DNA of 64,000 nucleotides from the NCBI GenBank assembly GCA_000092065.1, contig CP000589.1; one strand, 5' to 3'. The position numbers and the translations under genes were made by a program. The notes beneath the pieces are model-generated. The model did no database searches and was not told the origin of the DNA. It saw only the letters and a program-made list of their open reading frames with translations. Shown here in pieces: positions 23,717-60,985 of this stretch (its first letter is position 1; every line of letters begins with the position of its first letter). Source of the DNA: Ostreococcus lucimarinus. Taxonomy: Eukaryota.

Positions 23717-23758
23717 GGTCCCCGTTGTAAAAACATCCCCACTCGCCCACTCGGGCGC

Positions 23759-25840: not shown

Positions 25841-25958
25841 GCGCGGTGTCACCCTTTTTTCAAATAAATTCGCAGTAGATTACATTCTTTTATCCGTCGT
25901 GTGGACTAGAACCCTATTCGACTAGAACCGTGATTGTATCAAACGCCTACTCTCCTCT

Positions 25959-33330: not shown

Positions 33331-35892
33331 ATGTCGAACCCGCTCGAAGAACGCTTCCGCAGGTCATGGTTCGAACACCTCAGTCGCCTTCGAGAAGTCG
33401 AAGCCGCGTGCGCGCCGGAGATCGAAGGCGATCCGGCCCTCCGGTACAGCGTGCCCCGGATCGTCTGCATCGGTGAAGAGTCCTCTGGGAAATCCTCCAC
33501 GCTCGAGCGCGTGGCGATGATGAGCGTGTTTCCGAGCGACGAGAGACTGTGCACGCGGGTGCCGATCGAGCTGCGGCTGAGGCATCGCGATCGGGAGAGT
33601 TTGGCAAAGGAGGAAGAGCGGTTTAGGGACGGGTACGTCGTCATGAAAATGGCGCCGGGCGAGGATTCCAAGTTAAACGCGGACGTTTCCTCACAGATGC
33701 ATCCCGATGAAGTTCCGGCGCAAGTTCGCACGTGGATGGAAGAGCTAGTCGCGGCGGCGAACGGCAAAGTGACGGGCGTGACGGATGACCGGATAATCAT
33801 CGAGCTGTACTCTCCGCTGTGCGTCAACCTGGATTTGATCGATTTACCTGGGATCGTGGCTGGGAGCATACCAGGGGAGCCTACGGACATGATGGACCGC
33901 ACGAGAAATCTATCGGCATCGTTCTTGAATGATAAGGCGCATCCACATACGTTTGTCATCGCCGTCGCATCGGCGCGCGAGGCGAGAATTCGTAACTCGC
34001 AAGCGATGGAATTGGTGCAGCGTTACAATAAAGTGCAATTCACTATTGGTGCTTTGACGATGGCGGATCTTTCAGCAGACAGTCGCCGTGAATCACCATA
34101 TACGAGACTGATCGAACGTTTGAATGCACAAGCGGACGATACGCCGGAGCTCGGTCTTGGGTACGTGGCTCTCAAGAATCGCGACACCGTTACGGCGACA
34201 CGAGAAAACCAATCGAGAGAAGAACTCGAGAAGGCCAACCAAGATGAAAAAGAATGGTTTGCTGAGCATCTTTCCGGACATACTGAACGCTGTGGCATTG
34301 AAAGTCTCGTCGATAGACTCGTGCAAAAAGTTGACGAGTACACCAGGGGGCCATGGATCGTAGCCGAGCGCGAGCGCATCGAGACTGAGCTCGTGAAAGT
34401 GCGACAAGAATTAAGCGACATGGGCGAGTTCCTGCCGAACGATTTGAATGAACTTATTTCTTACTTTTCCAGTGAGATAGAGAAGCAGTGTAAACCTTCG
34501 TTTGAAACACTTCTTGAGTTTGTTCCAACGGTGACATCCGGCAGCGCCGGACTGCAAGATATCTACGACGCCGCAAACTTTACGATTTGGCAACACAGCG
34601 ATATCCACTCGCTAATGCCGTCAATTTCTCCAACCACTTTAAAGACATTCGACGGTCGAATGTTCTACGGCGAACCCACCTTTACAAAAAGATGGTCGCC
34701 GTTTGTGAAAATCACGCACAAACATCTTTTTGGGCAAGACACGCAGACACCTGAGACACCGTCCCATGCCTCATCAAATGGCGTTTGGACAATGCGGCGT
34801 GACGCTATAAACACAATTTCAGATCACTTCAATCAGACTTTTTGTAACGGTAGCCTGCTATTCGTTGGCCGACGTTGCTCATACGACGACGATGGTTGCG
34901 GTGGTGACAAGTTGGTTGGATTCTTTATCACACAGGACATGATACAACAAAGAAGACACGATATTCAGACCATGTTGGCGGCGTTGGGCAAGCGTGTGCC
35001 AACAGACAACCGTTCTCCTTGGACGAAGAGAGAGAACCATGAGAGCGATTCTCAGGATTCGAATTCTCAGTCACCAAATAATGTTGGAACAGGCACTGGT
35101 TTTGATTTTGCTCCGAACCTTTTTACTCAGCGTGCAGAGCGCGGACCGTTTCGTCGCGCGCGACGTTCAACGCGCGGCGGTCTCGAACAAGATGGGGAAG
35201 TAGTTGTTCTTTACCACCCTGCACGACCAGCTTTCAGAGCGAAGTTAGAGATATCTGAGGACCTGGAGAAATATTATGAGAACGTCTTGCATCTGCGCGA
35301 GTCTGTCGTTCGGATTTTCCAGACGAATGCTCGCGCCTTCTTTAAATCATCAATCACGGACGTATTGGACGTTCTGAAAGCAAAGGATGCGCGATTTTCT
35401 GTGTTTTTCGAATCGCTCTCTGTGATTCTTGATGATTGGTGCGAGGTGTGTGTTCGGAACGTAACCACTGAATTTGCTGAGTGGCTTACGAGGACAGGAG
35501 CCGTATCAGAGAATCGTGATGCGCATTTTCAAATCACCGCTTCGTATTTTACTAACTCGATAACACGCAAAATGCGCGAAATGATATTCTTTCATTACGC
35601 TGATTCAAGCATTGCCAAAGTTTTCGAATCAGGCGAGCTCAATGAAATCATGCGGCGGCACTGCGACGAGCATAACATCGATGTAGACGATCTTTACGTT
35701 GAAAACTGTGTTGAACAGCGTAAGAAAGCGGTGATGAAAATGGAAATGCTGACAACCATGAAGAACAGCCTACATCAAATATTTACGAGTGAAGTGGACG
35801 AACAAAGTAACGAACAACTTCCAAACACGCCAGAAGCAGATGCGGCACCTGTCCCGACTCTCTCGCACTCTCTCAGTCGAACTTCGATCTGA
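33331..35892 (+). CDS. dynamin-superfamily large GTPase (Mx/DRP-like)
   Basis: PRIVCIGEESSGKSSTLERV (G1), ...TRVPIEL (G2 region), DLIDLPGI (G3), and LTMADLS (a TKxD-like G4 region). Long alpha-helical C-terminus. ATG verified. Confidence 0.75.
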   Translation: MSNPLEERFRRSWFEHLSRLREVEAACAPEIEGDPALRYSVPRIVCIGEESSGKSSTLERVAMMSVFPSDERLCTRVPIELRLRHRDRESLAKEEERFRDGYVVMKMAPGEDSKLNADVSSQMHPDEVPAQVRTWMEELVAAANGKVTGVTDDRIIIELYSPLCVNLDLIDLPGIVAGSIPGEPTDMMDRTRNLSASFLNDKAHPHTFVIAVASAREARIRNSQAMELVQRYNKVQFTIGALTMADLSADSRRESPYTRLIERLNAQADDTPELGLGYVALKNRDTVTATRENQSREELEKANQDEKEWFAEHLSGHTERCGIESLVDRLVQKVDEYTRGPWIVAERERIETELVKVRQELSDMGEFLPNDLNELISYFSSEIEKQCKPSFETLLEFVPTVTSGSAGLQDIYDAANFTIWQHSDIHSLMPSISPTTLKTFDGRMFYGEPTFTKRWSPFVKITHKHLFGQDTQTPETPSHASSNGVWTMRRDAINTISDHFNQTFCNGSLLFVGRRCSYDDDGCGGDKLVGFFITQDMIQQRRHDIQTMLAALGKRVPTDNRSPWTKRENHESDSQDSNSQSPNNVGTGTGFDFAPNLFTQRAERGPFRRARRSTRGGLEQDGEVVVLYHPARPAFRAKLEISEDLEKYYENVLHLRESVVRIFQTNARAFFKSSITDVLDVLKAKDARFSVFFESLSVILDDWCEVCVRNVTTEFAEWLTRTGAVSENRDAHFQITASYFTNSITRKMREMIFFHYADSSIAKVFESGELNEIMRRHCDEHNIDVDDLYVENCVEQRKKAVMKMEMLTTMKNSLHQIFTSEVDEQSNEQLPNTPEADAAPVPTLSHSLSRTSI

Positions 35893-35969
35893 TACTTTTG
35901 TGGAACCCGTGGAGTAAAGAGTCGTAACAACAATGAATCAAATATACAACATGTTTTCTATGTTTTCTT

Positions 35970-37787
35970 CTACAAAAGTCCCGCGCGCGTTATCTCGAGC
36001 AACTCGTCCCCTGGCGCCGAGCGCACGTGAAAGTTCACCAGCGTCGGTTGCATGTACGCGATGGAAATGGACATCGCGAACGGGTACACGGGATGAAAAA
36101 CGTACTGCACGCGTCGCTTGCTTCGTCCGTTATTCGCCAGGGAGTTGTTCAGCATTAACTTGAAACTCACGCGACGCCGTTGACCCTGTTGCGCGCTGAC
36201 GAATTTAATGCCAAAGTCCACGTGCGGCTGCAAGCGGTCGATGGCGGTGATCGTGCGCTCGTCGTAAGAGAAGAGCCTCTTGTCAAAGTACGGCGACAGC
36301 GACCTGAACTGCGGTGGGTAATCTTGCGTACGGAACAAGCGCGTGGCGATGGTGTTGAACGCATCCTCATCGTCGTCATCGATCTCCGCCGTGGACGTGT
36401 TACACACAGCCAGCGCCTCTCCTTGGCTCCCCGCGAAGCGCGCCCAGGGAAAATCGCCGCGCGGCGGAGCGTTTAACTCTTCGTCCACCATTCCATTCGT
36501 ATCGCTCATGCTCGTCGCCGTCTGCGTAAATGCATTCTTACTCAGATCGAAGACACCATACATCGTCGGCCCGATGACGTTGTCCCCGCGCCGCGCCAGC
36601 GCGTACTCGGGCGTGCCAAACTTGATGAGGAGCAAATTCGCGTCCAGGATGCGCACGCGAAGCATCACCAACGACACGTATCGCTCAAAGTTTCGGTGCA
36701 ACAGTCGCAGCGCGTCCGGGCTCGACGATCGTCGCGCGTCGTGATATAACGATGTCACCAAACGCTGCGTCAATCCGGTGAGCATCGACCGCCCCGAGGC
36801 GGCGAATCCCGTCGCGCGCGTTCGCGCCTTCTCCGCCGCTTGCGGTTCGGCGTCCATCCAAGCCCGCTCGCGCGCGTCTTGTGCGGCTACAGTTTCCTTG
36901 TCCTCGTTCGTGATGTGCTCACCGATCGATGCGACTTCTTCGAATCGTCCCTCTTCGTGCACTCGCAGAAAAATCACGCGCTGATGCTTCATCGACAACA
37001 CCGCGAGCGTGTCGCCTCGAAGACTCACCGCGCCGTTCCGCGGCAGGTGCATGAAATCGTCTCGAAACGTGAACGAGTCCAATTTCTCGCCCGTCTTCGT
37101 GCGCACGAGATGTAACACGATGCGCTGCATCGAAGGCGCTCCCGAAATCCCGCCCGACGTCTCCTGCGTCTCCGTTCCGCGTCGCCCTCTCGCTCGCGCC
37201 GCCGCTCGCGCCGGCGCCCCGTCTTCGTCCTCTCGCATCGCCCCTCCCGCGGCGACCGACGACCCATCCAACGGCGTCGCGCTCGCCGCGACGATGTACT
37301 CCCCATCGTGCACCTCGAGCATGAAATCCTTCACGATCGCGTCGTCTCCATCGCTCAGATGCGTCGTCCACTTCTCTTCAAAGTACGACCAAAACGATCC
37401 CATCGCCCGCTCCGTCGCCTCGCTCGCCACCACCTCCCCTCGCTTATCCCGCCTCAGGCACGCCCGCATTCCCCTGAACGCGTACCCCACCAGCTCTTGC
37501 TGATGTCTCGACACGCACAGCAGCATCGACCCGTCGTTCGTGAACTTTCTCGGCGCCACGTCGGGAAAATCGCACACGCGACACGTCGCGTTCGGCGTCA
37601 CCCCGCTCGCGTACACTCGCCGCGCGTTCGCGTGATCGTTCCCCGCGCCTCGTCCCAGCGCCGCGCGATCGAGCGTCCACCTGAAGACGCTCGCGCGCGA
37701 CGTCTCCGCGTCGCCGTCGCGTCTTCCGCGCGCCATCCCGTCGCCATCGTCGCCGTCGTCGTCGTCGCGCCGCCGCTTCTTATCCAT
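35970..37787 (-). CDS. DET1: DET1 (de-etiolated 1) homolog
   Basis: C-terminal SLSPYFDKRLFSYDERTITAIDRLQ...VQYVFHPVYPFAMSISIAYMQPTLVNFHVRS aligns with the conserved DET1 C-terminus (SPYLDLSLFSYDD...VAFTFHPFEPFAISVQR...VVNFHMR). ORF trimmed to in-frame ATG (MDKKRRRDDDD). The upstream 37788..39017 part of the ORF-track entry is a pure CG repeat and antisense to the next gene. Confidence 0.75.
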   Translation of the reverse strand: MDKKRRRDDDDGDDGDGMARGRRDGDAETSRASVFRWTLDRAALGRGAGNDHANARRVYASGVTPNATCRVCDFPDVAPRKFTNDGSMLLCVSRHQQELVGYAFRGMRACLRRDKRGEVVASEATERAMGSFWSYFEEKWTTHLSDGDDAIVKDFMLEVHDGEYIVAASATPLDGSSVAAGGAMREDEDGAPARAAARARGRRGTETQETSGGISGAPSMQRIVLHLVRTKTGEKLDSFTFRDDFMHLPRNGAVSLRGDTLAVLSMKHQRVIFLRVHEEGRFEEVASIGEHITNEDKETVAAQDARERAWMDAEPQAAEKARTRATGFAASGRSMLTGLTQRLVTSLYHDARRSSSPDALRLLHRNFERYVSLVMLRVRILDANLLLIKFGTPEYALARRGDNVIGPTMYGVFDLSKNAFTQTATSMSDTNGMVDEELNAPPRGDFPWARFAGSQGEALAVCNTSTAEIDDDDEDAFNTIATRLFRTQDYPPQFRSLSPYFDKRLFSYDERTITAIDRLQPHVDFGIKFVSAQQGQRRRVSFKLMLNNSLANNGRSKRRVQYVFHPVYPFAMSISIAYMQPTLVNFHVRSAPGDELLEITRAGLL

Positions 37788-38184
37788 CGCGTCGTCGCCT
37801 CGCGCGCGCGGTCGCGGTGCGCCGTCGTCGCGCGCGCGCGCTCGCTCGCGCGTCGCCTCGCGCGACGCGTCGCGCGCGCGGCGTATCGTATTTTCGCGCG
37901 CTCGGCGTTCGCGTCGCGCGCGTCGCGCGCGGTCGCGCGCGCGGTGTGCGGCGCCGACGCGACGACCGACGTCACCGCGGGACGTTTCGAGCGTTTCGCC
38001 GTCGATTCGCGTCGACGCGCGCGTCGCGACGCGCGCGACGCGAACGCGCGCGCGCGCGCGGTCCGCGACGGAGAAAAATTTCGCGCGCGCGGTCGCGCGC
38101 CGTCGCGCGCGGACGCGCGTCGCGCGCGCGTCGCGACGCGTCGCGACGCGCCGTCGTCGCGAATGCGCGAATTCGCGACGCGCG
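37788..38184. promoter_or_regulatory. CpG-alternating (CGCG)n-rich island forming the DET1 / glycosyltransferase divergent intergenic region
   Basis: ~400 bp, almost exclusively C and G, with long (CG)n and GCGCGCG runs (e.g. gcgcgcgcggtcgcggtgcgccgtcgtcgcgcgcgcgcgctcgctcgcgcg). Confidence 0.6.
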
Positions 38185-39615
38185 ATGCGATCCGCGTCCG
38201 CGCGCGTCGCGCGATCCGCGACGCGCGGCGCGCGGTGTCGACGCCGACGCGCGCGCGTCGCGCGATCGACGCGCGCCGCGAGGCCGACGGCGCCGTCGAT
38301 CGCGTTCGTCGGGTGGGAGTGGATCGAACCGTCGTCCTCGGCGGCGGGCGCGCGGTCCGTCGCGCTCGTCGCGGAGGCGCTGCGGCGAGGGTGGCGCGTG
38401 ACGTGCGTCGCCAGCGCGGAGGCGCGCGCGGGGCAGGAGGACGCGCTCCGCGCGATGGGCGCCGAGACGCGCCGGATGAAGGCGAATCGAGGGGATGAAT
38501 TGCGCGCGCTCGTCGAGGCGGCGAGACCGGATTGCGTCGTGTTCGATAGGTTCCTCGCGGAGGAGGCGTACGCGGGGAGGCTGCGGGAGATCGCGCCGAG
38601 CGTGGTGCGAGTGCTCGACATGCAGGACGCGCACGCGCTGCGAAGGGCGAGGGAACGCGCGGCGAAGGCGGCGAAGACGCGCGGCGAAGACGCGGCGAAG
38701 GAGGTTTTGAAGAGCGCGCCGAACGCGAGGGACGAGGATTTGATGCGCGAGATCGCGAGCGTGCAGAGGAGCGATTTAACTCTGGTGTGCTCGCCCGTGG
38801 AAAAGGAGTGGTTGACGCGCGAGTGCGGCGTGGCGGAGAGGAAATTACGCTTGGCGTCCTTCTTCGTCGATTCCGTCGACGCCGAGGCGATGAAGAGGGA
38901 TTTTAGCGCGCGGAAGGATTTCGCCACCATCGGTACGTTCATGCATAAACCAAACGTAGATTCTGTAGAGTGGTTGTGCGAAGAGGTGTGGCCGTTGGTG
39001 CGCAAACAGCTCCCCAACGCGACGATGCGCGTGTACGGATCTTACGCCACCGAAAACCATCGTCGACGATTTCACAAACCAGCGCAAGGATTCTTGTTCG
39101 AAGGTTTCGCGGAGGACTTGGGCGAGACGTTGCGCGCGCATCGCGTGTTGCTCGCCCCGCTTCGGTTCGGCGCCGGTATCAAAGGCAAGATTCTCGACGC
39201 GTGGCGATACGGATTACCCGCGTGCACGACGCCCATCGGCTCCGAGGGATGCGTGCCGGACGTCGTCGAGTTTTGGTCGCCCACTTCGAGCGCGCCGATA
39301 GACCCCGAGCACGGGTGGGGCGGGTTTGGCGATTTCACAAACCCGCAAGATATCGCCGACGCCGCCGTTCGTCTTCACGAAGACGAAAATTTGTGGCGTC
39401 TCGCTCGCGGAAACGGCGCCGACCTCCTCGATCGCCTCTTCTCCGCCCGCGTCAACTTACCCGACGTCTTCGACGCCATCGAGCGCGTCATCGACGATGT
39501 CGATGCCGTTCGAGACGCGGATTATTTCGGCCAGTGCTTATGGCGAGAAGACGTGCGTTCGACGACGTACTTTTCCAAATGGATCGAAGCGAAAGAAACC
39601 GGCGCGACGAATTAG
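38185..39615 (+). CDS. GT-B fold glycosyltransferase (GT4-like)
   Basis: The C-terminal FEGFAEDLGETLRAHRVLLAPLRFGAGIKGKILDAWRYGLPACTTPIGSEG matches the GT4 'E..G.....EAma.G.P.v' sugar-donor-binding region. The N-terminus is R/A-rich and transit-like. ATG at 38185. Confidence 0.6.
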   Translation: MRSASARVARSATRGARCRRRRARVARSTRAARPTAPSIAFVGWEWIEPSSSAAGARSVALVAEALRRGWRVTCVASAEARAGQEDALRAMGAETRRMKANRGDELRALVEAARPDCVVFDRFLAEEAYAGRLREIAPSVVRVLDMQDAHALRRARERAAKAAKTRGEDAAKEVLKSAPNARDEDLMREIASVQRSDLTLVCSPVEKEWLTRECGVAERKLRLASFFVDSVDAEAMKRDFSARKDFATIGTFMHKPNVDSVEWLCEEVWPLVRKQLPNATMRVYGSYATENHRRRFHKPAQGFLFEGFAEDLGETLRAHRVLLAPLRFGAGIKGKILDAWRYGLPACTTPIGSEGCVPDVVEFWSPTSSAPIDPEHGWGGFGDFTNPQDIADAAVRLHEDENLWRLARGNGADLLDRLFSARVNLPDVFDAIERVIDDVDAVRDADYFGQCLWREDVRSTTYFSKWIEAKETGATN

Positions 39616-39654
39616 TTTCTAGTCTTGAATTGTATCGTGATAGATGGTCGTTAA

Positions 39655-41139
39655 TTAAATCGTGCAAATCGGGTTGTTCTTCACCGACGTGATTTGCATC
39701 TTCGAGCCGAACAAGTCGCGAATGTTGTCGATGCCGTACATGATCATCGTCGGTCGCTCGAGCGAGAGACCCCAGGCGATGACGTTGACGTCCTCGGGCA
39801 GACCCATCGGCTCGAGCATCTCCGGACGAAACATCCCGGAGTTACCGACCTCGACCCACTTGTCGAGCATCGGGTGGAAGGCGAAAATTTCCATTGAAGG
39901 CTCGGTGTACGGGTTGAACGCGGGCTTGAATCGAAGCTGCGTCATCCCGAGACGCTCAAAGAATTGATACAACACGCCGATGAGATCGCCGAGCGTGAGA
40001 TCTTTGTCGCAAATAACACCCTCGACTTGGTGGAACTCGGCGAGGTGCGTGCGATCGACGGCTTCGTTGCGAAACACGCGATCGATGGAGAACATTCGCG
40101 CCGGCTTGAAACCGGTTTGCGCGATGTCGTACAGCATGCGCGCGCTCACCGCGGTGGTGTGCGTGCGAAGAATATTCTTATCCGCCTCTGCGCGCTTCCA
40201 CGCGTACTGATGACCGATCGAACCGTTCCCCCCGGTCTCGTGCATCTTACGCACGCGTTCCACGTAATCCTCCGGCGCAAAGTTCATCGTCGCCGGCGTC
40301 TTCATAAAAAACGTGTCGTGCGCGTCTCGCGCCGGGTGCTGTTGCGGTTGAATCAGCGTGTCAAAATTCCAAAATCCACTCTCCACGAAGTTATTCGTCG
40401 GCATCTCCGAGAACCCCAACGAGAAGAAAATCTCCCGAAACGCCTGTCGAACCTTGAGCAACGGGTGCACGTGCCCGCTCGCCGGCTGCGCCCCCGCCCC
40501 CGGCACCAAATTATACGCCTTAAACGCCTGTCCCCTCCACGACCCTTCATTCATCATCTCCTTCGTCAAATCCGCCGGCAGCACCTTGCGCTCGAGCGCG
40601 AACTCCGCCCCCTTCGTCAATTCGTACTCTTTCCACCGCTCCTCCTTGGCCAATTTTCGCTTCTTCGTCAGCGTCTCCAGCGTCTTCGCATCCACGGTTT
40701 CTCCACCCCTCAGCGCTCGCAGCGCCTCCCGCACGTCATCCTCGATCGTCTCCACCCGTCGCTCCACCCTCGGCGTCGCTCCCTTCACCATCGCCAACCA
40801 ATTCCTTTGCATCGCCTGCTTGAACCCGACGTCCGCCGCCCCCGGTCCCGCGCGCGTCCTGAACGCGTCCAGCTCGATCCCCTCCTCCGGCACGCACGCG
40901 AACGCGCGCGCCTCGGGCGATCCCTCATCGACGCACCGCTCGCCCTCCGCCGTCAGCGTCGTCCTGGAGCGCTCGATCGCGCGCGCGACGACCATGTTCG
41001 CCGCCGTCAGCCGCTTGACGACGCCGACGACCGCCTGATGATCGACGCCGTGGCGCGCGCTCGCGGACGCGGTGTCCGCGATGCCGTCGCGGGCGATCGC
41101 GGCGAGGACATCGCGCTCGATCGCGTCGGCGTCGGACAT
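39655..41139 (-). CDS. FARSA: phenylalanine--tRNA ligase alpha subunit (cytoplasmic type)
   Basis: QQHPARDAHDTFF, FKPAFNPYTEPSMEIF, VEVGNSGMFRPEML and AWGLSLERPTMIMYGIDNIRDLFG are near-identical to eukaryotic FARSA class-II motifs. Trimmed to in-frame ATG (MSDADAIERD). Confidence 0.95.
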   Translation of the reverse strand: MSDADAIERDVLAAIARDGIADTASASARHGVDHQAVVGVVKRLTAANMVVARAIERSRTTLTAEGERCVDEGSPEARAFACVPEEGIELDAFRTRAGPGAADVGFKQAMQRNWLAMVKGATPRVERRVETIEDDVREALRALRGGETVDAKTLETLTKKRKLAKEERWKEYELTKGAEFALERKVLPADLTKEMMNEGSWRGQAFKAYNLVPGAGAQPASGHVHPLLKVRQAFREIFFSLGFSEMPTNNFVESGFWNFDTLIQPQQHPARDAHDTFFMKTPATMNFAPEDYVERVRKMHETGGNGSIGHQYAWKRAEADKNILRTHTTAVSARMLYDIAQTGFKPARMFSIDRVFRNEAVDRTHLAEFHQVEGVICDKDLTLGDLIGVLYQFFERLGMTQLRFKPAFNPYTEPSMEIFAFHPMLDKWVEVGNSGMFRPEMLEPMGLPEDVNVIAWGLSLERPTMIMYGIDNIRDLFGSKMQITSVKNNPICTI

Positions 41140-41299
41140 CGTCCGCGGCTCGCGCGCGGCTCGAGCGTCGCGCGATGGCGCGCGATGGCGGATCGACAGA
41201 CCCTCGAACGCGCCATCGACGGTTCGTGACTCAAGAAGAGAGGGGGTCGACGACGCGGGCACGCGACGCACCGCATCGGCGCGACCGCAGACGGCGACG

Positions 41300-42568
41300 A
41301 TGGCGCGCGCGCGCGCGAGCGATCGGCGGCGACCCGCGGCGGCGCTCGCGGTGGCGCTGACGCTCGCGTGCGTCGCGCGCGCGACGACGCGAGGCGCGGC
41401 GCCACCGACGCGCGTCGAAAAGATGACGACGCGACGCGCGGCGCGCGACGCGTTCGCGTCGACGACGAGCGGCGACGCGAGGACGCTCGACGACGCGCGA
41501 CGCGCGTTCGCGTTCGCGAGCGATCGCAAGGCGCACGCGCTGGTGACGGGCGGCGCGGGATTCATCGGGTCGCACTGCGCCGAGGCGCTGCTGCGGCGCG
41601 GCTACGCGGTGACGACGGTGGATAACATGAGCCGAGGGAACGCGGGCGCGGTCGAGGCGCTGCGAAGGATGGCGCCGAAGGGAAGCCTGCGAGCGGTGCG
41701 AGGGGATCTGGGCGTCGTCGAGGACGTGGACGCGGCGTTCGGGAACACGAACATGCCGGTGGACGCGGTGTTTCACTTCGCGGCCATCGCGTACGTGGGG
41801 GAGTCGATGGCGGATCCGGTGAGGTATTACTCGAACATCACGACGAACACGGTGAATTTATTGCGAGTGATGCAGGCGAAAGATGTGAGGAAGATGATTT
41901 ACAGCTCGACGTGCGCGACGTACGGGAACGTGGAGAAGTTGCCCATCACCGAGTCGACGCCGACGAGGCCGATTAATCCGTACGGCAAGTCCAAGTTGTA
42001 CGCCGAAAACGCGATCAAGGATTACGCGCTGGCGAATCCAAAGTTTAAGGCGTCGATTTTGCGGTATTTCAACGTGTTCGGGGGCGATCCCGAGGGCGTG
42101 TTGGGCGAGTTGCCGCGCGCGGAGTTGCGCGAGCACGGGAGAATTTCCGGCGCGTGCTTCGACGCGGCGATGAAGAACATCGACAAGCTCACGGTGATGG
42201 GGACGAAGCACCCGACGCGGGACGGGACGACGATACGAGACTTTGTGCACGTCGTAGATTTAGTGGACGCGCACATAGCGGTGGCGGAAAAGAACAAATT
42301 TGATAATCCTCCGTCGTTGTACAACGTCGGCACGGGGAGCGGCGTGAGCATGCGAGAGTTCGTGGAGACGTGTAAAAAGGTGACGGGCGTCGACATAGAG
42401 ATTCACTATCGCGCTGAACCTCGGCCCGGAGATTACGCCGAGGTGTACGCGAACGTGGACAAGATCAAACACGAGCTCGGGTGGGAGGCAAAGTACACGG
42501 ATTTGCACGAGAGCCTGACGCACGCGTGGAAGTTTAGAAAAACGAAGGGCGACACCTGGGAATTGTAA
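41300..42568 (+). CDS. NAD-dependent UDP-sugar 4-epimerase (GalE/UDP-arabinose 4-epimerase MUR4-like, type-II membrane anchored)
   Basis: VTGGAGFIGSH Rossmann, YSSTCATYG...PINPYGKSK (SxnYxxxK). The N-terminal hydrophobic anchor (AAALAVALTLACVA) resembles Golgi UXE/MUR4 enzymes. Trimmed to in-frame ATG (MARARASD). Confidence 0.8.
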   Translation: MARARASDRRRPAAALAVALTLACVARATTRGAAPPTRVEKMTTRRAARDAFASTTSGDARTLDDARRAFAFASDRKAHALVTGGAGFIGSHCAEALLRRGYAVTTVDNMSRGNAGAVEALRRMAPKGSLRAVRGDLGVVEDVDAAFGNTNMPVDAVFHFAAIAYVGESMADPVRYYSNITTNTVNLLRVMQAKDVRKMIYSSTCATYGNVEKLPITESTPTRPINPYGKSKLYAENAIKDYALANPKFKASILRYFNVFGGDPEGVLGELPRAELREHGRISGACFDAAMKNIDKLTVMGTKHPTRDGTTIRDFVHVVDLVDAHIAVAEKNKFDNPPSLYNVGTGSGVSMREFVETCKKVTGVDIEIHYRAEPRPGDYAEVYANVDKIKHELGWEAKYTDLHESLTHAWKFRKTKGDTWEL

Positions 42569-42605
42569 ACGAGCTGTAATTGTACTACCGTAGCAACGAA
42601 TTTTT

Positions 42606-43538
42606 CTACAAATCGCTAAGTGTCTGCGCGAACGCGCCCTCTAACATCGCCATCTCTTCGAACACATCGTCTCGAGACCCGTCGAGCGCGCGCGCGTCGC
42701 GTAAGAGCGCGCGTCGCGCTTCGTTCGCCGCCGCCGCGACGGCGGCTCGTCGGGCGTCCGCGGCGTCGGCGACGACGCGCGACACGCTCGCGCGCGCACG
42801 AACATCGAGCGCGTGCAACGCCGACTTCGCCGTCTCCGCGCGCGCGGCCTCGCGTTCGAGCTCGCGTTCCGCTTCGCTCGCCGGAACATCCGGCGCCGGT
42901 CCCCAAAACTCGAGCGCGCGCGACCACGCGGCGTCCACGTCCGTCTCCTCCGTCGCGTCCACGACGAACGCCGGAAACGTCGCCCCATCTCCCGGCGTCG
43001 TCACCGCCGGCGCCTCGAACGCGCGCGTCATGCGTTCGAACACCTCCTCCGGAACCGCCTCCGCGCCCTCGCGATTTCGATTTCGCCGTCTCGCCTCCTT
43101 CGTCGGCGCCGTCACGTGCGCGCACGCGCAGCTCGCCCTCGCCTCCCTCGCCGCGCGAAACACCTCCCACCGCATTCCTCTGTAATACATGTTATCGTCC
43201 ACGATCACCACCGTCTTCACGCCGTCTTCTCGCGCGTTTCCTCGTCTCGTCGCCGCGTCGACGTCCGCCGCCGCCTCGGCGCGCGCCGCTCGCCACCGCG
43301 CCGGCTCGAACGCCGTCGTCCCGTCCTCGCGCGTCATCGCGCGCAGCTCGCGCGCGTCGTAACGCGCGTGATGCGCGTCGTGCCCGCTCTCGCGCGCGCG
43401 TCGCGCGAGCGCGCGCGCGAGCGTCGTCTTCCCGACCCCCGGCAGGCCGCACAGGACGAGCACGAGCGTCTTGGACGCGTCCTCGCGCGGCGCGCGCGCC
43501 GCTCGCGGACGCGACGCGGCGTCCGAGGCGGTGGCCAT
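42606..43538 (-). CDS. PSTK: probable L-seryl-tRNA(Sec) kinase (PSTK); KTI12/PSTK P-loop kinase family
   Basis: LVLCGLPGVGKTTLARALA P-loop. VVIVDDNMYYRGMRWEVFRAAREA matches the PSTK D-D-N-x-Y-Y-x-x-M-R-x-E-V motif (human LVLDDNFYYQSMRYEVYQLARK). The downstream segment (...CAHVTAPTKEARRRNRNRE...VPEEVFERMTRAFEAP) parallels PSTK (CQLFLDCPLETCLQRNGQRP...LPPETIHLMGRKLEKP) better than KTI12 (DSLNYIKGFRYEL). Trimmed to in-frame ATG. Confidence 0.5.
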   Translation of the reverse strand: MATASDAASRPRAARAPREDASKTLVLVLCGLPGVGKTTLARALARRARESGHDAHHARYDARELRAMTREDGTTAFEPARWRAARAEAAADVDAATRRGNAREDGVKTVVIVDDNMYYRGMRWEVFRAAREARASCACAHVTAPTKEARRRNRNREGAEAVPEEVFERMTRAFEAPAVTTPGDGATFPAFVVDATEETDVDAAWSRALEFWGPAPDVPASEAERELEREAARAETAKSALHALDVRARASVSRVVADAADARRAAVAAAANEARRALLRDARALDGSRDDVFEEMAMLEGAFAQTLSDL

Positions 43539-43616
43539 CGCGCGCGCCGCGCGCGGCGGCGCGCGCCGCGCCGCGCGCGACGCGGCGCGACGCAGCGCGC
43601 CGCAGAGCGCGACGCG

Positions 43617-44498
43617 ATGTCCCGCGGCGGCAGGAAGACGCACGCGCACGACGATCAGTACGGCGAGGTCGGACGCGGCGACGACGGCGACGCGCGCGAC
43701 GACGGCGCGCGATCGACCGGCGGCGCGGGCGCGCGGAAGGGCGCGAAGGGGAGCGTGGCGTACGTTCGAAGATTGCCAAAATTTCTAGAGGCGCACGCGG
43801 GACTTCTGGGCGCGACGACGACGACGCGCGACGACGACGACGCGCGAGCGACGGTGAACGACGCGGTGAACGCGCGGACGGAGGCGGTGCGCGGCGAGAC
43901 GGACGCGAGGGCGCGGACGGGGGCGGCGCCGCGGCGGTCGGCGTTGAGCGCGCTGGGATTCGACGACGACGAGTCGATCGCGGAGATGGCCGCGGTGCAC
44001 AAGGGCGAGGGGAACAGGGCGTTTCAAGAGAAGCGATTCGAAGACGCGGTGGCGTCGTTTTCGCGCGCGGCGGCGCTGGAGCCGAAAAATTGGGTGTTTT
44101 TTAGTAATCGGAGCGCCGCGTACGCCGAGCTTGGGCGGTACGACGACGCGTTGGATGACGCGAAGGAGACGATTCGATTGAACTGCGAGTGGACGAAGGG
44201 GTACGTTCGACTCGCGACGGCGTGCTCGGCGCTGGGTAGGTTGTCCGAGGCGACCGCGGCGTGGAGGAGGGCGTGCGAATTGGACGACGAGAACGCGTCT
44301 TTGCGGGAATCGCTCGCAAAAGCGGAAGCGGCGGAAGAGTCGTCCTTGAAGGAAGGCAAGTTCAAGTTTCAAGGGTCGAAGCGTAAAGAGACGGCCGGCG
44401 ACGGTGAAGACGTCGCCGGAGGCGATGTGACGGAGGCGAAGAAGAAGAAAAAGAAGCCGCCTCCCGCGACGCTGTCGTTTGCGGATGACGACGGGTGA
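43617..44498 (+). CDS. TPR-repeat protein (Hop/STI1-type TPR module, Lys-rich C-terminus)
   Basis: AEMAAVHKGEGNRAFQEKRFEDAVASFSRAAALEPKNWVFFSNRSAAYAELGRYDDALDDAKETIRLNCEWTKGYVRLATACSALGR is three canonical TPRs. Trimmed to in-frame ATG 43617. The upstream part of the ORF-track entry is antisense to PSTK. Confidence 0.65.
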   Translation: MSRGGRKTHAHDDQYGEVGRGDDGDARDDGARSTGGAGARKGAKGSVAYVRRLPKFLEAHAGLLGATTTTRDDDDARATVNDAVNARTEAVRGETDARARTGAAPRRSALSALGFDDDESIAEMAAVHKGEGNRAFQEKRFEDAVASFSRAAALEPKNWVFFSNRSAAYAELGRYDDALDDAKETIRLNCEWTKGYVRLATACSALGRLSEATAAWRRACELDDENASLRESLAKAEAAEESSLKEGKFKFQGSKRKETAGDGEDVAGGDVTEAKKKKKKPPPATLSFADDDG

Positions 44499-44540
44499 GT
44501 TACGGTAGAAGTATTAATAATGTACCATGCGAAACGATTA

Positions 44541-46775
44541 TCAATCTACATCCTTTAACGAAGAGGCCGCGCGCGCGGACGTATTTTCGACGGTCGCGCT
44601 CTCCGATCGCGCGACGGATAAAACTTCGAGTTTTGCCTTCATGTCGGCGAGTTTCTTGGCTTGCTCCTCGGCACGCTTTTCCTTCATTCGCTTTTGCAAC
44701 CGACCAACCTTGTACAAGTCTTCGTAATTCGTTATCACCGCCACGTCCGGGTTCTCGCGTATGGCCTTGTCTTCCGCCGTTTCCTCGTCTTCCGATTCGG
44801 TGTCCCAACCGAAATCGTCGTCGTCGCGCGTGAAATCCGCCTTCGCAATGATTTCCCAATCTCTGGCGAGATCGTTTGGCACGGGCGCGATGGATCCTTC
44901 GGGTACGCGCGCGTCACCGCTCGGCATTTTTGACTCATGAGAGCTAGCGTGCACGCGAAGCGCGTATGGACTCGAGCCCATGAGCACGTCTCGACACGAC
45001 ACGACAAGACGGTAAAAGCCATCCTCGACGGGCTCGTACGAAGCCACGAATCGCCCGCGTCCGTCGTCTTCAATCTTCACTCCATCCTTAGTTTTGATTT
45101 CGTGTCCGTTGACGTCGGTGACCGAGATTTGCAAAGGAAGCTGCTCGCTTAAGTTTCCAAACACATCGTTATCGAATTCATCGCGAGCCTTGATCGTAAA
45201 CGATGCGCGCTGTGAAACCGCGGCTCGCCTCGTACCATCGCCTTCGACGACGCAATGCTTTGCGCTCGCACGCGCGGGCTCGACCACGACGTCGTATGGA
45301 GAGTTTCCGCACTGTTCGTCGTTTCCAATGATGACTTCGCACTGATACGCGCCGGCGACCGTGCACGTGTAGTACGCCACATACGTCCCGTCGCCGTTAT
45401 CCGTCACGGTGCCGTATTCGACGAGTTCGTCGTCCGTCTCCATGGAATCCACGTGTGTTAGCTTGACGGTAAATATATCTCCCCCGCTCAAGCGTTTATT
45501 CTTCAACTCATCCTTCGCCTCGATGCCAATCATGCTCGCTTCCCCCGCGCGCGCTTTCACGACGCCCGGCCCGAAAACTTTCGTAAACGCCGGTTCGGCG
45601 GTACTTTGGCACCAGCAATCGCGTTCCCATTCGCCGCGATACTTTGTGCCATCGGCGAAGACGCACACGCCGTAACCGTGTCGCTCGTCTCGCACCCACT
45701 CGCCTTGATATTCATCACCGTTGGCGTACGTGCACGCGCCTTTGCCGTGTCGCTTACCGTCACACCACTCGCCCTGGTAAATTGTGCCGTCGGCGTACAA
45801 TCGCTTGCCTTTGCCGTTTTCGGCGTCTTCGTCGAACGCGCCGCGATACTCCTCACCGAGGTCGGTGAATTTGCAAACGCCCTGTCCTTTTCGACGACCC
45901 CCTTCAAAGTCTCCAACGTACTCGAACGTCGCTGTTTTCAACACGCCCTTGCCGTGATACTGATCGTCTCGCCACTCGCCGTCGTACGTCGATCCCGTGG
46001 CGAGTTCGCACTTGCCTCGCCCGTGCCTGAGATCGTCGCGCCACTGCCCTATGTACTTGTACGACCCAACGGCGGCAAACTTACCGCGACCATGCCGATA
46101 ATCACCGCGCCACTCTCCGTCGTACTCCACCGATCCGTCCTTCGCCGCGTACCTTCCGCGCACTCGCGATCCCGAAAGCGTCGCGCCGTTAAACGTGGAC
46201 CCGTCCGCGTACGTATACATCCCATTACCCTCGACGATATCATCCACCCATTCGCCCTCGTACACGTCCCCGCTCGCGAAACGTTGCGTACCCCACCCCC
46301 AGCGATGATCATTCTTCCACTCACCCTCGTACACGTCGCCGTTGACGTACTCGCACCTCCCTCGCCCGCACGTCTTGTCGTCTTCCCATTCGCCCTCGTA
46401 CTTCAATCCCGACTTGAATGTCATCGTCCCTCGTCCGTGTCGCTTATCGTCCCTCCAGTACCCATCGTACACGTCCCCAGTGCTACACACGTGTCTCCCT
46501 CGTCCGTGTCGCGTCTCATCGACGCACTCGCCCACGTACTCGTCGCCGTTCGTGTACTCGAGCGCGCGCTCGTCGTAATACCGAGGCTCGAGCGCTTCCG
46601 CCTCATCCACGATCGCGCGCGACTCCGCGTCGTCCTCGGCGCGCGCGAGCATTTCCCTTCGCACCGCGCGCAACCGCTCGAGCTCCGCGCGCATCTCCTC
46701 CGTCGTCCGTTTCTTCCCTCCATCATCCGCCTCCGCCTCGCGCGTCCCGACGATTCGTCCATGATCGACGCTCGC

Positions 46776-46808
<33 letters not shown>

Positions 46809-46841
46809 CGCGTCCTCGTCGCGCAATTCTTCGATGATCAT
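44541..46841 (-). CDS. MORN-repeat protein with two C-terminal filamin/IPT-type Ig-like domains
   Basis: Roughly 15 consecutive YxGxWxxxxxHGxG MORN units (YDGYWRDDKRHGRG, YEGEWEDDKTCGRG ...), followed by FGPGVVKARAGEASMIGIEAKDE...YTCTVAGAYQCEV and a second filamin-like repeat. Trimmed to ATG (MIIEELRDED). The upstream 400 codons of the ORF-track entry are Pro/Ser/Arg low-complexity. Confidence 0.8.
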
Positions 46842-47243
46842 TTCCCTCGACCGAACGCGCGCGCGCGTCGCGCCGTCGCGTCGCCGTGTCGCGCGCGCGC
46901 CGCGTTCGCGCGCGCCGTCGTCTCGAGCGTTACGCGTGCGTTTCTCGCGCGCGCTCGACGAGTCGACGCCGTCGCGCGCGCGCGCCGTCGCGCGCGCGTC
47001 GCGCGTCGCGCGCCATCGACGCGAGAAATTTCGCGTCGTCGGTTCGTCGCGCGCCGTCGTCGCGCGCGGCGTCGCGCGCGCGCGACGGCGTCGATTCGTC
47101 GCGTCGCGTCGCGCGTCTCTCGCGCGTCGCCTCGACCGCTCGAGGTCGCGCGCGCGATCGAGCGAGGGGTCGTCACTCGCGCGCGCACGACGCGGCGACG
47201 TCGGCGCGCGGGCGAGCGCGCGCGCGCGATCGACGCGCGTCGC

Positions 47244-47266
47244 GGTCGGTCGGTCGGTCGGTCGCG

Positions 47267-47297
<31 letters not shown>

Positions 47298-47349
47298 AAC
47301 GCGACGAAAGTTTGGATTGGATTGGATTGGACTGGTTTGGATTGGATTC
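47244..47349. repeat. microsatellite cluster: (CGGT)5 at 47244-47263 and (TTGGA/TTGGAC)n at 47312-47349
   Basis: cggtcggtcggtcggtcggt ... tttggattggattggattggactggtttggattggatt. Lies in the divergent intergenic region between the MORN gene start (46841) and the gene starting at 47354. Confidence 0.85.
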
Positions 47350-47353
47350 GACG

Positions 47354-48220
47354 ATGTCGGACGCGGTGGCGGGCGCGGATGAGACCGTGGGGCGACGGAC
47401 GACGCGACGGGGCGCGGACGGCGGCGCGGGGAGCGCGCAGGCGGCGGCGAGGCGGGAAACGATCGAGATGCGGACGGAGCGGTACGCGAATTGTAGGGTG
47501 CATAAGAATTGCGGGGACGCGTACTGCGAGTTTCGGAAGCTGGCGTGGGAGTTTCGAGCGGTGCGGGATCGAGCAGAGGCGAAAGGGTCGAAGGCGAAGG
47601 CGGTCGCGGAGGCGTGGGTGAGAGCGGCGATGAAGGAGGACGACGCGTGGAATGAGGCGGCGGAGAGGGAGCGGAAGAGGTTGCGGGCGGAGGCGGCAAA
47701 GGTGACGAAGGCGATGGAGCTCGCGGCGAGAAGCGCGCCGACGGAGCGAGAATTGAGACGCGCGCGGGCAAAAGAGTTGAAGCGTCTCGATGGAGACGCC
47801 GATGTGAGCGAAGAACCGTCGCGCGCGGGGACGCCACCGCCGGAGACGGAGGAGGAAAAGAAGACACGACAGGCGATGGAGATTTACGAGAAGCGCATGC
47901 AGCGCGTGCGCGACTTGACCAAACGCCGCGCCATGCTCTTGGCTCGCGCCAGTACGGTGGTGGTGCACCCGGGAACAAACAAGGTGATCGCGTTGTCAAC
48001 GCCCGAAGAGCTGTCAATCGTGCTGAAGATTGAGGCAAAGAAGAAGGCGCAGATGGAACAGAGGCGGCGTCAACGCGGCTTGAAGCGTCCGATGAAGGGT
48101 CCGAACATTGGCGACATGTACAGAATGCCGCGTCTTTTCGAGGAAGTCTGGCTGTATGAAGACAGCAACGTGGACGAACCGACTATTTCGGATTTGATTC
48201 ACATGAACATAGGAATGTAG
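47354..48220 (+). CDS. hypothetical K/E/R-rich protein
   Basis: ORF 46886..48220 trimmed to in-frame ATG (MSDAVAGADE). Charged coiled-coil-like middle region and a CRVHKNCGDAYCEF Cys cluster. No family recognised. Confidence 0.4.
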   Translation: MSDAVAGADETVGRRTTRRGADGGAGSAQAAARRETIEMRTERYANCRVHKNCGDAYCEFRKLAWEFRAVRDRAEAKGSKAKAVAEAWVRAAMKEDDAWNEAAERERKRLRAEAAKVTKAMELAARSAPTERELRRARAKELKRLDGDADVSEEPSRAGTPPPETEEEKKTRQAMEIYEKRMQRVRDLTKRRAMLLARASTVVVHPGTNKVIALSTPEELSIVLKIEAKKKAQMEQRRRQRGLKRPMKGPNIGDMYRMPRLFEEVWLYEDSNVDEPTISDLIHMNIGM

Positions 48221-48259
48221 CTCTCTACCAATACAATTAAAGAGAATTCTAAAGACTCT

Positions 48260-50359
48260 TCACGACGACTTTTCTCGCTCGACGATTTCGTCAATCTTAC
48301 GGAACTGCCACGGCCATCGCACGTTGTACAGGAACTGTCGCTGATCGAATCTATTGTCGTCCGGCGAGTAATTTTCAGCGTGATACGACGGCGTGAGCGT
48401 TGTCATCTTGTGCCTGTTGCACGAATAAAAGAAGAAAAATTTCTTCACCTTTTCGGCGATTTCGCTCGCAGAGAGCCCGCGATCCGCCCACTCCACGGTG
48501 TACAGACGCTTGAACATCGCCACTGGTCCAAGACGGGCGATTTTACGCAACCTTCCGTAAACACCGAGATCGTCGTAACTCATACCCATGTCCTCTTCGT
48601 CGGTTTGTACGTAGTCATCGCGAATAGGTTCGAGTTCCGCGGTAGGCGGCGCCTTTTCGACTTCTGCGAGCGTGGGATATCCCAAATTCATCGCCCCCCA
48701 GCGCAAGAACGATCGCAAATCGGCTTTGCTGATGCCGCCAATCGGATTTACGTCGGCACTCGAGCAATCGTACTTGGTCATGTATCCTCTCAATCCCTCG
48801 TCCACGTTCGCGCTCCCCAACACGAGCAAAAAGCCAGATTTACCTCGAACCCAAGGCAAAAGTTGCGCGAAAAGGAAGGACAAAACCATGCGCACGCGAG
48901 CTTGGATGTTTTGAAGCGCCAAGTTTTCCGCGTTTGACCCGCCGTCCACCTTAAATTTCGGCGTTTTCCCAGTCACCGTGGTGAAGAATGTTACGACGGC
49001 TGTCACCACGACGTCGATGGCGACGCTCAAATGCGAGGCGCCGATATCATTCGCGAGCGCCGCCGCGCGCGCGCGCGTCTCCGCGCTGCTGTTGTCCGTG
49101 CCAAGGTAAACAGTCGTAAATATCATCTTCGCCAACTCTTCGGCGCTCGGGATCGGGACGTCGCTCGCAAGTTGGGCGACGCGACGAATATCGTCGGCGA
49201 CAATCGCGTCCCCCGCGCTCGCCGCCCTGGTGACTAGTTGACACATGCTTCCGACGATGGCGGCCGTGCTGGCCGAGTCGGCGCCTCCGGAAAGCGGCAA
49301 AAAGTATCCGCTCGCGCCCGAGCGCCTGAGATAATCCCACAACCAGCACGCTGGCCCGAGCGCGATTTCCTCCTCGGGCGCATGAAACGAAATTGCCCGC
49401 TTCGGCGTCACCTTGAGATTCTCAGAAACGCACAGCTTGCCCGATACACGCACGGTAGGTATGCGCTTCACACTCGCCGCTTGTACACTCATCGATTGAA
49501 ACGCTCCTCGATGCGATTGAACTTCATCGAGATCCACCGTCGCGGCGACGACTTCGACGTCGCTCACGTCGAATTGTTTCCCTTGCGCCACGATTTCCCC
49601 ATTCACCGCGATGCACGCGCATCCATCGTAGTACAATCGCCCACCGTCACACCCGCGCTGATTGGAGTACAAATACACCCCACCCGCCTTCCCACTCGCG
49701 CTCTTGATCAAATTCATCCTGGCGTCCAACTTTCTCAATTGGTGGTGCGACCCGCTCCCGTTGCTCACGATTTCAATCCCATTCAACGCCAACGCGATGT
49801 GCGGCGCGTCGGGCGTCCACAACTCCTCACACGTCTCGCATCCTAATCCCGCGTCGTCGAACACCACCGCTCCGTCCCCGAACGCCACGCTCGTTTTCCC
49901 GTCCATTCCGAACCTCGCGCAACTCTCCGGCAGCGTAAACTCCTCCACTTCGTTCGCGCGCGTCCACGCCGTGAACCACCGCGACTCGCGATAATTCCCA
50001 TCATCCGCCAGCGCTCTCTTCGGTCGCACGAACGCGATCGCGCCGTCGACGATGATGACTCGACAATTATACCTCGCCCCGCGCGTCGTCGCCGGCGCGC
50101 CGACGTCCACCACCGCCCCGCGCATCAATTCCTTCTCCTCGCACAGCTTCGCGATCACCTCCCACGCGTGCGTCTCCGTGTCGCGCTCGTGAAAGTGATC
50201 CTCGCACCCGTACCCGCACGTCTCGAGCTCGGGCCCGACGCGATAGCGCGCGCCGAGTCTTTTCGCGCGCAGGATGCTCTCTCGAATCCGCGCGTAATTT
50301 CCATCAAAGTCCAGCGCCCACTGGTTCAGCGCGCAGCACGCGACGGCGACGACGCGCAT
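48260..50359 (-). CDS. NADSYN1: glutamine-dependent NAD(+) synthetase (NADSYN1-type: N-terminal CN-hydrolase plus NAD synthase domain)
   Basis: MRVVAVACCALNQWALDFDGNYARI (nitrilase-like N-terminus), LPLSGGADSASTAAIV PP-loop, and the C-terminal ...YHAENYSPDDNRFD. Trimmed to in-frame ATG 50359. Confidence 0.9.
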   Translation of the reverse strand: MRVVAVACCALNQWALDFDGNYARIRESILRAKRLGARYRVGPELETCGYGCEDHFHERDTETHAWEVIAKLCEEKELMRGAVVDVGAPATTRGARYNCRVIIVDGAIAFVRPKRALADDGNYRESRWFTAWTRANEVEEFTLPESCARFGMDGKTSVAFGDGAVVFDDAGLGCETCEELWTPDAPHIALALNGIEIVSNGSGSHHQLRKLDARMNLIKSASGKAGGVYLYSNQRGCDGGRLYYDGCACIAVNGEIVAQGKQFDVSDVEVVAATVDLDEVQSHRGAFQSMSVQAASVKRIPTVRVSGKLCVSENLKVTPKRAISFHAPEEEIALGPACWLWDYLRRSGASGYFLPLSGGADSASTAAIVGSMCQLVTRAASAGDAIVADDIRRVAQLASDVPIPSAEELAKMIFTTVYLGTDNSSAETRARAAALANDIGASHLSVAIDVVVTAVVTFFTTVTGKTPKFKVDGGSNAENLALQNIQARVRMVLSFLFAQLLPWVRGKSGFLLVLGSANVDEGLRGYMTKYDCSSADVNPIGGISKADLRSFLRWGAMNLGYPTLAEVEKAPPTAELEPIRDDYVQTDEEDMGMSYDDLGVYGRLRKIARLGPVAMFKRLYTVEWADRGLSASEIAEKVKKFFFFYSCNRHKMTTLTPSYHAENYSPDDNRFDQRQFLYNVRWPWQFRKIDEIVEREKSS

Positions 50360-50582
50360 GTCGAACCTTTTCGCGCGTCGTTTCGCGCGCGATTCGGCGC
50401 GCGCCGTTCTCGCGCGTCGGCGCGCGGCGCGCGAATCGTCGAATTTCCGGGAAATCGCACCACCGGACGCGTCAGAGACCGACGCGCGTCGGACCGTCGG
50501 CGACGGACGCGCCGCGCGCGCGCGCGAGGCGTCGCGCATGACCCGCGCGCGCGCGCGGACGTGATCGAGCGACGCGCGCGCG

Positions 50583-52637: not shown

Positions 52638-52678
52638 CTCATCGATTAGCACATGTATTTCAGCAGCGTCTAGATCCA

Positions 52679-54313: not shown

Positions 54314-54472
54314 CGCGCGCGTCGCGCCGTCGCGCGCGCCGGCGCGCGCGTTTCGTTTCTTCGCCGCGAGGTCTCGCGCGTCCACGGGCGCGTCGCGTCG
54401 CGCTCTGGCGCGCGATCGATCGCGCTGGATGATTTTGAATTCAAATCGAGCCGTCTCACTCGCGCGCGCGCG

Positions 54473-60528: not shown

Positions 60529-60985
60529 CGACGCGCTCGTTTCGTTTGGTTCGCGCGCGAGGCAGGCTCGAGACGCGCAAACGGTACGACGACGCCGCGA
60601 CGCCATCGCGGCGTTAGACGTGGAAATAGCCGAGCGCGAATTGCGATTGGAAACTGCGACGGCGCGCGCGCGCCCGTTCGTGCACCGCTCGAGAGAACGC
60701 TTGTCGAGTTGGACGGAGGCCGCCGCGCGCCGTTTCGTGGCGACGACGCTCGAGCGCGAGCGCGTCGAGGATCTCGACGTTTTCGCGCGCGCCGCGCGTC
60801 AGGGGTGGGTCTTAGACGCGCACAAGTACCGTCGCACCGCGCCGCGTTGGCGCGTGTTAGATCCTCGATGCGGCGGCGTCGTCATTCGCGAGTATTAAGT
60901 CGCGCGTCTGGGTAGTTAGAGTAGCTCGTCCCGAACAACAGTCGTTGATCGTCCGACTTCAGACGCCGCCTCTCGCCTCGCCACG

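Follow-up and report, generated by a model that had tools for sequence, protein, structure and literature searches.

Compaction with a retained UGUA-type signal as the probable origin of short convergent 3' spacers in an Ostreococcus nuclear genome

Six short spacers separate the stop codons of convergent gene pairs within the window, the whole stretch of 64,000 nucleotides analyzed in this study. These spacers are probably normal 3' intergenic DNA in an Ostreococcus nuclear genome that is extremely compacted, and not a module with a specified length. Under this explanation, deletions would shrink the 3' intergenic DNA toward the smallest size that still works, and the shrinkage would halt where a short, AT-rich, unstructured stretch carrying a poly(A) signal is indispensable. 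Each spacer would usually keep at least one UGUA-type near-upstream element within about 0–30 nt of a stop. The lengths of 36–42 bp would then be values piled on a soft lower bound within one compacted 15-kb run of alternating genes.

The window is GC-rich (~0.61; regional GC 0.56–0.69) and very gene-dense eukaryotic nuclear DNA. Eukaryotic domains were identified by Pfam in its ORFs, including Vps18, COMMD, KTI12, Det1, cytosolic PheRS-alpha, MORN/filamin, DHHC, CLPTM1, and dynamin. The O. tauri protein falls in a 90%-identity cluster whose representative is 83% identical to the PheRS-alpha of the window; the value for the Micromonas-containing cluster is 71%. O. tauri chromosome 9 is syntenic, with FPGS, DHHC, HAD, Det1, GT, PheRS, epimerase, KTI12, and MORN in the same order. 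These matches place the host in the chlorophyte genus Ostreococcus, a lineage documented to use UGUAA. The window sequence recurs in many marine and estuarine metagenome contigs. The contigs returned by a metagenome scan were all genomic, and none ended in a poly(A) tail. When the window was searched for known structured RNAs and tRNAs, none was found.

The gene map was built from ORFs, Pfam matches, and independent gene calls, and was extended by ~20 kb of flank from the same-species contigs L011 and L012. The map covers ~84 kb of the lineage, and the sample is only 16 convergent pairs. Comparisons were made with the sister L018 (92–95% nucleotide identity), with lineages B (L006, L024, and L025), C (L009 and L020), and D (L007, L021, and L023), and with O. 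tauri. The orthologous spacers can be read across lineages because the gene order of the locus is conserved. The six short spacers of the original prediction were recovered at exactly the ORF stops, with stop-to-stop lengths of 36, 39, 37, 42, 39, and 41 bp. The flanking stops match independent gene calls on same-species contigs. At five of the six pairs, with KTI12 among the genes aligned, the alignment to orthologues of four other lineages extends through the final residues. The flanking genes are convergent protein-coding genes, with stops validated by Pfam domains, independent gene calls, and orthologue C-termini.

The first spacer, 3976–4011 (36 bp), lies between u472 on the plus strand (stop ending at 3975) and COMMD on the minus strand (stop 4012–4014). 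Its TGTA at 3985 serves the plus-strand gene, and COMMD has a TGTTA variant only. Similarly, the spacer at 39616–39654 (39 bp), between a plus-strand glycosyltransferase (GT) and a minus-strand PheRS-alpha, carries a plus-strand TGTA at 39631, and PheRS is without TGTA. The spacer at 42569–42605 (37 bp) separates a UDP-sugar 4-epimerase (Epi, plus) from KTI12 (minus). It contains TGTA at 42575, as the full TGTAA, and at 42581; in addition, TGTAA or TGTAG encloses each flanking stop codon. Between a TPR protein (plus) and a MORN/filamin protein (minus), the 42-bp spacer at 44499–44540 has its TGTA at 44521. The spacer at 48221–48259 (39 bp) lies between u288 (plus) and NAD synthase (minus). Its only TGTA is on the minus strand (TACA at 48232), and a TGTAG overlaps the u288 stop. 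The spacer at 52638–52678 (41 bp), between a TIG-domain protein (plus) and u568 (minus), carries TGTA at 52654, with only a TGAAA variant for u568. The plus strand therefore holds TGTA in five of the six spacers. The earlier claims of local AT enrichment and of a TGTA in every spacer were both confirmed: the GC content of the six is 0.31–0.44 vs ~0.61 window-wide, each carries TGTA on one strand, and all the quoted motif strings were found.

TGTA/TACA is the sole 4-mer, among 136 strand-symmetric 4-mers, that is common to all six spacers, and the 4-mer search across the six gave no other shared motif. Seven copies were counted vs 2.6 expected, with P ~0.002 for all six spacers carrying one (5000 shuffles). 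The motif was further analyzed in a pooled set of 80 genes, of which 45 belong to this lineage and 35 to B, C, and D, over the 45 nt that follow each stop. As the original prediction implied, TGTA was enriched just after the stops on the sense strand. It was the top over-represented 4-mer in the pooled set, with 33 copies vs 17.3 expected from dinucleotide shuffles and z = 4.5, a value that is inflated because orthologous genes of different lineages are not independent. Within this lineage alone, TGTA occurred 15 times vs 8.3 expected (z = 2.8) and followed 14 of 45 stops. Sense TGTA peaks from -15 to +30 of the stop, at about twice the mean of eleven same-composition 4-mers, and TACA peaks from +15 to +60 as the mirror signal from the convergent partners. 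A 3'-end signal would be expected to have such a strand-specific placement. In the motif-bearing genes of the six pairs, TGTA is located 0–26 nt after the stop. After stops, the enrichment of TAGA, GTAG, and CTAG is similar to that of TGTA (z = 4.0–5.3; window, L006, L007, L009, L011, and L012). TAG is also frequent 3–8 nt downstream of TGTA, a putative TGTA-N(3-8)-TAG pattern that may mark a cleavage-site context. There may also be a likeness to the old yeast terminator consensus "TAG...TATGTA...TTT".

The motif is not universal. TGTA is present within 45 nt of about one third of the stops and absent from about two thirds. COMMD, PheRS, and u568, three of the 12 genes of the six pairs, have no TGTA within 110 nt, and TGTA is missing from both strands in 6 of the 34 convergent spacers no longer than 125 bp. 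The copies inside the spacer proper serve one gene per pair; when the copies overlapping a stop are included, both partners are served in only two of the six pairs. The full TGTAA accounts for only one of the seven spacer copies. In this lineage, the 3' flanks contain TGTAA five times, TGTAT seven times, TGTAC twice, and TGTAG once, and TGTAT is thus at least as common as TGTAA.

Across lineages, TGTA is retained at shifting offsets by Det1, KTI12, and NAD synthase, and the GT copy is retained in the sister at a different alignment position. This suggests that TGTA is kept by selection despite sequence turnover. Stops located inside TGTAG or TGTAA are those of Det1 (35970–35972), KTI12 (42606–42608), the epimerase (42566–42568), and u288 (48218–48220), and the stop-embedded motif is conserved in other lineages for Det1 and KTI12. 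In such genes, the stop codon might also serve as a portion of the poly(A) signal.

These data bear on the possibility that the spacers are leftover AT-rich DNA, in which TGTA occurs by chance or composition and the 3' ends are specified elsewhere, for example in the coding region of the partner. The small sample would allow it, and so would the many stops and the few convergent spacers that lack TGTA. The loss of the sole TGTA of the TPR/MORN spacer by deletion in the sister, and spacer substitutions at about the synonymous rate, point in the same direction. However, the twofold enrichment over both dinucleotide shuffles and same-composition 4-mers, the strand-specific position relative to the stop, and the retention of TGTA by several genes across lineages despite turnover argue against it. 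Moreover, experimental data from a congener identified the same motif as its poly(A) signal (PMC6413133). Leftover DNA is considered an unlikely explanation.

Of the intergenic classes on the map, only the convergent spacers are AT-rich. The GC content of the short ones is 0.30–0.44, compared with 0.59–0.98 for divergent spacers, 0.58–0.72 for tandem spacers, and about 0.6–0.7 for the genes that flank convergent spacers. Folding of the spacers gave no RNA structure beyond chance (z-scores -0.40 to +2.48), and the search for inverted repeats in them gave none but one short palindrome. Hairpin-type (intrinsic) terminators were ruled out by the folding scores together with the inverted-repeat search. 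Palindromes of 6 bp picked out by eye (ACTAGT, GAATTC, ATCGAT, and ATTAAT) were also set aside, with ~0.7 per spacer expected by chance in a rough estimate.

The sharp GC contrast, from 0.30–0.44 in convergent spacers to ~0.6–0.7 in genes and up to 0.98 in divergent spacers, would also fit spacers that act mainly via chromatin, and the same can be said of their lack of RNA structure. The spacers would then be nucleosome-excluding 3' boundaries that halt or separate converging polymerases, with TGTA incidental. This is highly unlikely, since the strand-specific position of TGTA relative to the stops would be left unexplained, and spacers of 27–42 bp are shorter than typical nucleosome-free regions.

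The other intergenic classes have features of their own. The divergent ATG-to-ATG spacers at 43539–43580 (42 bp, GC 0.98) and 54386–54424 (39 bp, GC 0.79) are CG-repeat-like. With divergent spacers of only 39–42 bp, the promoters and 5' UTRs must overlap the adjoining coding sequences. In the tandem spacers at 23717–23758 (42 bp) and 4684–4727 (44 bp), the TGTAA or TGTAG of the upstream gene lies 4–10 nt past the stop and only ~30–40 nt before the next ATG. Successive mRNAs are therefore expected to overlap, the upstream one by its 3' end and the downstream one by its 5' end.

The lengths of all 16 convergent spacers are 36, 37, 39, 39, 41, 42, 77, 87, 88, 105, 114, 118, 118, 122, 188, and 703 bp. 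The original prediction had listed the short pairs only. The ten other convergent spacers in the ~84 kb span 77–703 bp; those of 77, 88, 118, 188, and 703 bp lie in the window, and those of 87, 105, 114, 118, and 122 bp lie in the ~20 kb of flanking same-species sequence. The 77-bp spacer (35893–35969, GC 0.32), between dynamin (plus) and Det1 (minus), is a longer member of the same class; Det1 has TGTA at +21 and its stop inside TGTAG. The 88-bp spacer (14629–14716, GC 0.30), between an alpha/beta hydrolase (plus) and u391 (minus), has TGTA on neither strand. The 118-bp spacer (25841–25958, GC 0.43), between a DEAD helicase (plus) and an FPGS-like gene (minus), has TGTAs distant from both stops (+94 and +74). 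The 188-bp spacer (11877–12064) separates a metallophosphoesterase (plus, TGTA at +21) from MsrA (minus). The 703-bp gap at 55427–56129, between the convergent u333 and a sugar transporter, is GC-rich (0.65) and by far the longest 3' spacer here. No convincing gene was found in it, only one called ORF of 55 aa, and it has no Rfam or tRNA match.

Six of the 16 lengths fall in one 7-bp range. The probability of such a cluster is 0.004 if the lengths are lognormal, 0.02 if they are uniform, and 0.07 if they follow a floor-plus-exponential distribution. The six short lengths are not independent, because five of them sit in one 15-kb gene run. A length of ~40 bp is also not peculiar to convergent pairs, because spacers of 39–44 bp exist among the tandem (23717–23758 and 4684–4727) and divergent (43539–43580 and 54386–54424) classes, where starts are less certain than stops. 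The length cluster is less secure than the spacer coordinates and the motif.

Length was compared across orthologous spacers. The GT/PheRS spacer, 39 bp in the window, is 67 bp in the sister L018, 95, 139, and 148 bp in B, C, and D, and 78 bp in O. tauri. The Epi/KTI12 spacer of 37 bp is 27 bp in L018 and in L017, 84–92 bp in B, 81 bp in C, and 113 bp in D. Similarly, the TPR/MORN spacer of 42 bp is 33 bp in L018, 56, 59, and 88 bp in B, C, and D, and 21 bp in L043, and the u288/NAD synthase spacer of 39 bp is 28 bp in L018 and 55, 62, and 54 bp in B, C, and D. The TIG/u568 spacer of 41 bp is 80 bp in B and 68 bp in C. The u472/COMMD spacer of 36 bp is 37 bp in L063 (95% COMMD identity), 37 bp in L064 with unrelated sequence, and 120 bp in L065. 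Overall, the O. tauri spacers are 67–78 bp, those of B, C, and D are 54–148 bp, and other lineages together span 21–148 bp. The length differs in four of four sister comparisons (39 to 67, 37 to 27, 42 to 33, and 39 to 28 bp). These orthologues clearly show that spacer length is free to vary and can fall below 36 bp. The same lengths indicate that the window lineage and its sister have contracted the short spacers far more than their relatives did.

The 27-bp Epi/KTI12 allele of L017 and L018 arises from a 10-bp deletion that removes one TGTA. The L017 KTI12 protein is >99% identical to that of the window, yet L017 carries the 27-bp allele of the more distant L018; this 10-bp indel thus separates very close relatives. 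The pattern suggests a segregating 10-bp indel or inter-lineage recombination. In the TPR/MORN spacer of L018, the sole TGTA is deleted. Base-level alignment with L018 showed that aligned spacer positions are 91–96% identical, similar to third codon positions (87–98%, about 93%), and spacer substitutions occur at about the synonymous rate. Indels number 27–51 events per kb in the spacers vs <1.2 per kb in coding sequence. The 3' spacers change fast by indels, and the genes and gene order are fixed.

The original prediction had read the uniform length as a constrained bidirectional termination module of ~40 bp, whose set length and TGTA would direct the 3' ends of both convergent genes. This claim is contradicted by the orthologue lengths in every lineage comparison, where 67, 27, 33, and 28 bp replace the lengths of the window in the sister and 21–148 bp are found elsewhere. 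The 10-bp indel between contigs with nearly identical KTI12 is a second argument against a set length. The only motif shared by the spacers is one 4-mer, both partners have a TGTA in just two of six pairs even with stop-embedded copies, the floor-plus-exponential null gives P = 0.07, and 39–44 bp recurs in tandem and divergent spacers. The module could claim the concentration of six of 16 convergent spacers at 36–42 bp with none shorter in this lineage, the low probability of this cluster under the lognormal and uniform nulls (P = 0.004–0.02), the TGTA in all six spacers, and the 36–37 bp of the COMMD pair in three lineages, including one whose spacer sequence is unrelated. It is nevertheless very improbable. 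Were a length-specified bidirectional element real, it would be a new rule of 3'-end formation for minimal eukaryotic genomes; the evidence points to the opposite.

Compaction with a retained poly(A) signal also makes predictions about the transcripts. In motif-bearing genes, the poly(A) sites are predicted to lie past the middle of the spacer or in the last codons of the partner, because the O. lucimarinus element sits ~10–30 nt upstream of the cleavage site. With only 27–42 bp between the stops, the two 3' UTRs would share DNA on opposite strands. Overlap of the 3' UTRs of convergent partners is therefore very probable, although, like the cleavage positions, it is inferred. Within each pair, the very short 3' UTRs of the two mRNAs would be complementary, either partly or in full. 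Epi/KTI12 is a possible exception to the overlap: both signals lie in the stops, and each UTR could be <20 nt. The claim of overlapping 3' UTRs is a reasonable one, with documented cases in the genus (PMC2367439) and in Micromonas (PMC4815162).

A stronger form of overlap would be an AT-rich 3'-end element of ~30–40 bp that is shared and obligatorily bidirectional, with both poly(A) sites at or inside the stop of the partner and with two length classes of spacers. The bimodal look of the small samples (27–42 vs ~60–120 bp) could reflect a real two-class architecture. If this were true, each mRNA pair would be fully complementary over its 3' UTRs, with antisense coupling of neighbours, and a fully overlapping class of 27–42 bp would stand beside a tail-to-tail class of ~60–120 bp, with intermediates selected against. 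Such a shared element is regarded as unlikely.

The arrangement of the genes around the short spacers was also analyzed. Orientation alternates strictly over 12 consecutive genes from Det1 to u333 (35970–55426), a given run of 11 alternations having a chance of ~2^-11. This strict alternation produces the chain of five short convergent spacers. The alternating arrangement is conserved in B and C and is broken only by inserted genes in D and O. tauri. Just before this run, the dynamin-family gene at 33331–35892 lies in a region of GC 0.47, with GC3 0.55 vs ~0.75–0.8 for its neighbours. The gene is confined to the window lineage; in L018, B, C, D, and O. tauri, no gene intervenes between the convergent HAD and Det1. 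The dynamin gene looks like a recent insertion. A viral origin of this lineage-specific gene was considered and rejected, the IMG/VR scan being negative.

Other features of the gene map are recorded here. A very large ORF (2156–2272 aa) at 16898–23716 has GC 0.50–0.57 and GC3 of only 0.59, and its sole Pfam matches are a few TPR repeats near the N-terminus. MsrA is present as two separate ORF pieces (12065–12870). At 60040–60898, ORFs of 162 aa and 129 aa overlap in different frames upstream of an FGE-sulfatase/glycosyltransferase gene. Both 12065–12870 and 60040–60898 are probably intron-containing or frameshifted genes.

These results are useful chiefly for annotation and as a clear negative finding. 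For Ostreococcus-like metagenomic contigs, an AT-rich dip of 25–45 bp with a sense TGTA marks convergent 3' ends, and GC-rich CpG stretches mark divergent 5' ends. The six loci are also convenient test cases for the minimum length of a eukaryotic 3' UTR and for regulatory effects of obligatory sense/antisense overlap.

The readings of a poly(A) signal and of overlapping transcripts are known properties of Ostreococcus genomes, and the uniform-length module was the only new element. In O. lucimarinus, the near-upstream element is mainly UGUAA, used at 30–40% of sites, and the element is defined at ~-30 to -10 from the cleavage site (PMC6413133). Published variants are UUUAA, UGAAA, and UGUUA. 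The earlier assignment of UGUAA as an algal poly(A) signal fits this genus. An earlier EST survey (Wodniok et al. 2007) had confined UGUAA to "late-branching" chlorophytes, with Mamiellophyceae outside its sampling (PMC1868727). Compared with the chlorophyte UGUAA element of Chlamydomonas and O. lucimarinus, the signals here share the genus of the latter, a sense UGUA core soon after the stops, and an AT-rich stretch. The carriers of UGUA, about one third of the genes, are close to the published usage of 30–40% in O. lucimarinus. The difference is that the full pentamer is in the minority among the copies counted here, with TGTAT at least as common as TGTAA and one TGTAA among seven spacer copies.

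Similarly, O. lucimarinus ESTs revealed convergent transcripts that overlap across small intergenic regions and cause over-clustering of ESTs (PMC2367439), and convergent overlapping gene pairs were described in Micromonas (PMC4815162). The likeness to these Mamiellophyceae is in tail-to-tail genes so close that their 3' UTRs would have to share DNA. The Micromonas pairs, however, are defined by a low-GC region and upstream distances of ~0.9–1.3 kb; the pairs here are located in normal high-GC DNA (regional GC 0.56–0.69), with upstream divergent spacers of 39–512 bp. Compacted genomes such as those of microsporidia and nucleomorphs (Williams et al. 2005, as cited in PMC2367439) also share with this genome the shrunken intergenic DNA and the overlap of neighbouring transcripts. 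Microsporidia and nucleomorphs often lose recognizable termination signals and read through whole neighbours, whereas in this Ostreococcus genome a poly(A) motif is kept near many stops.
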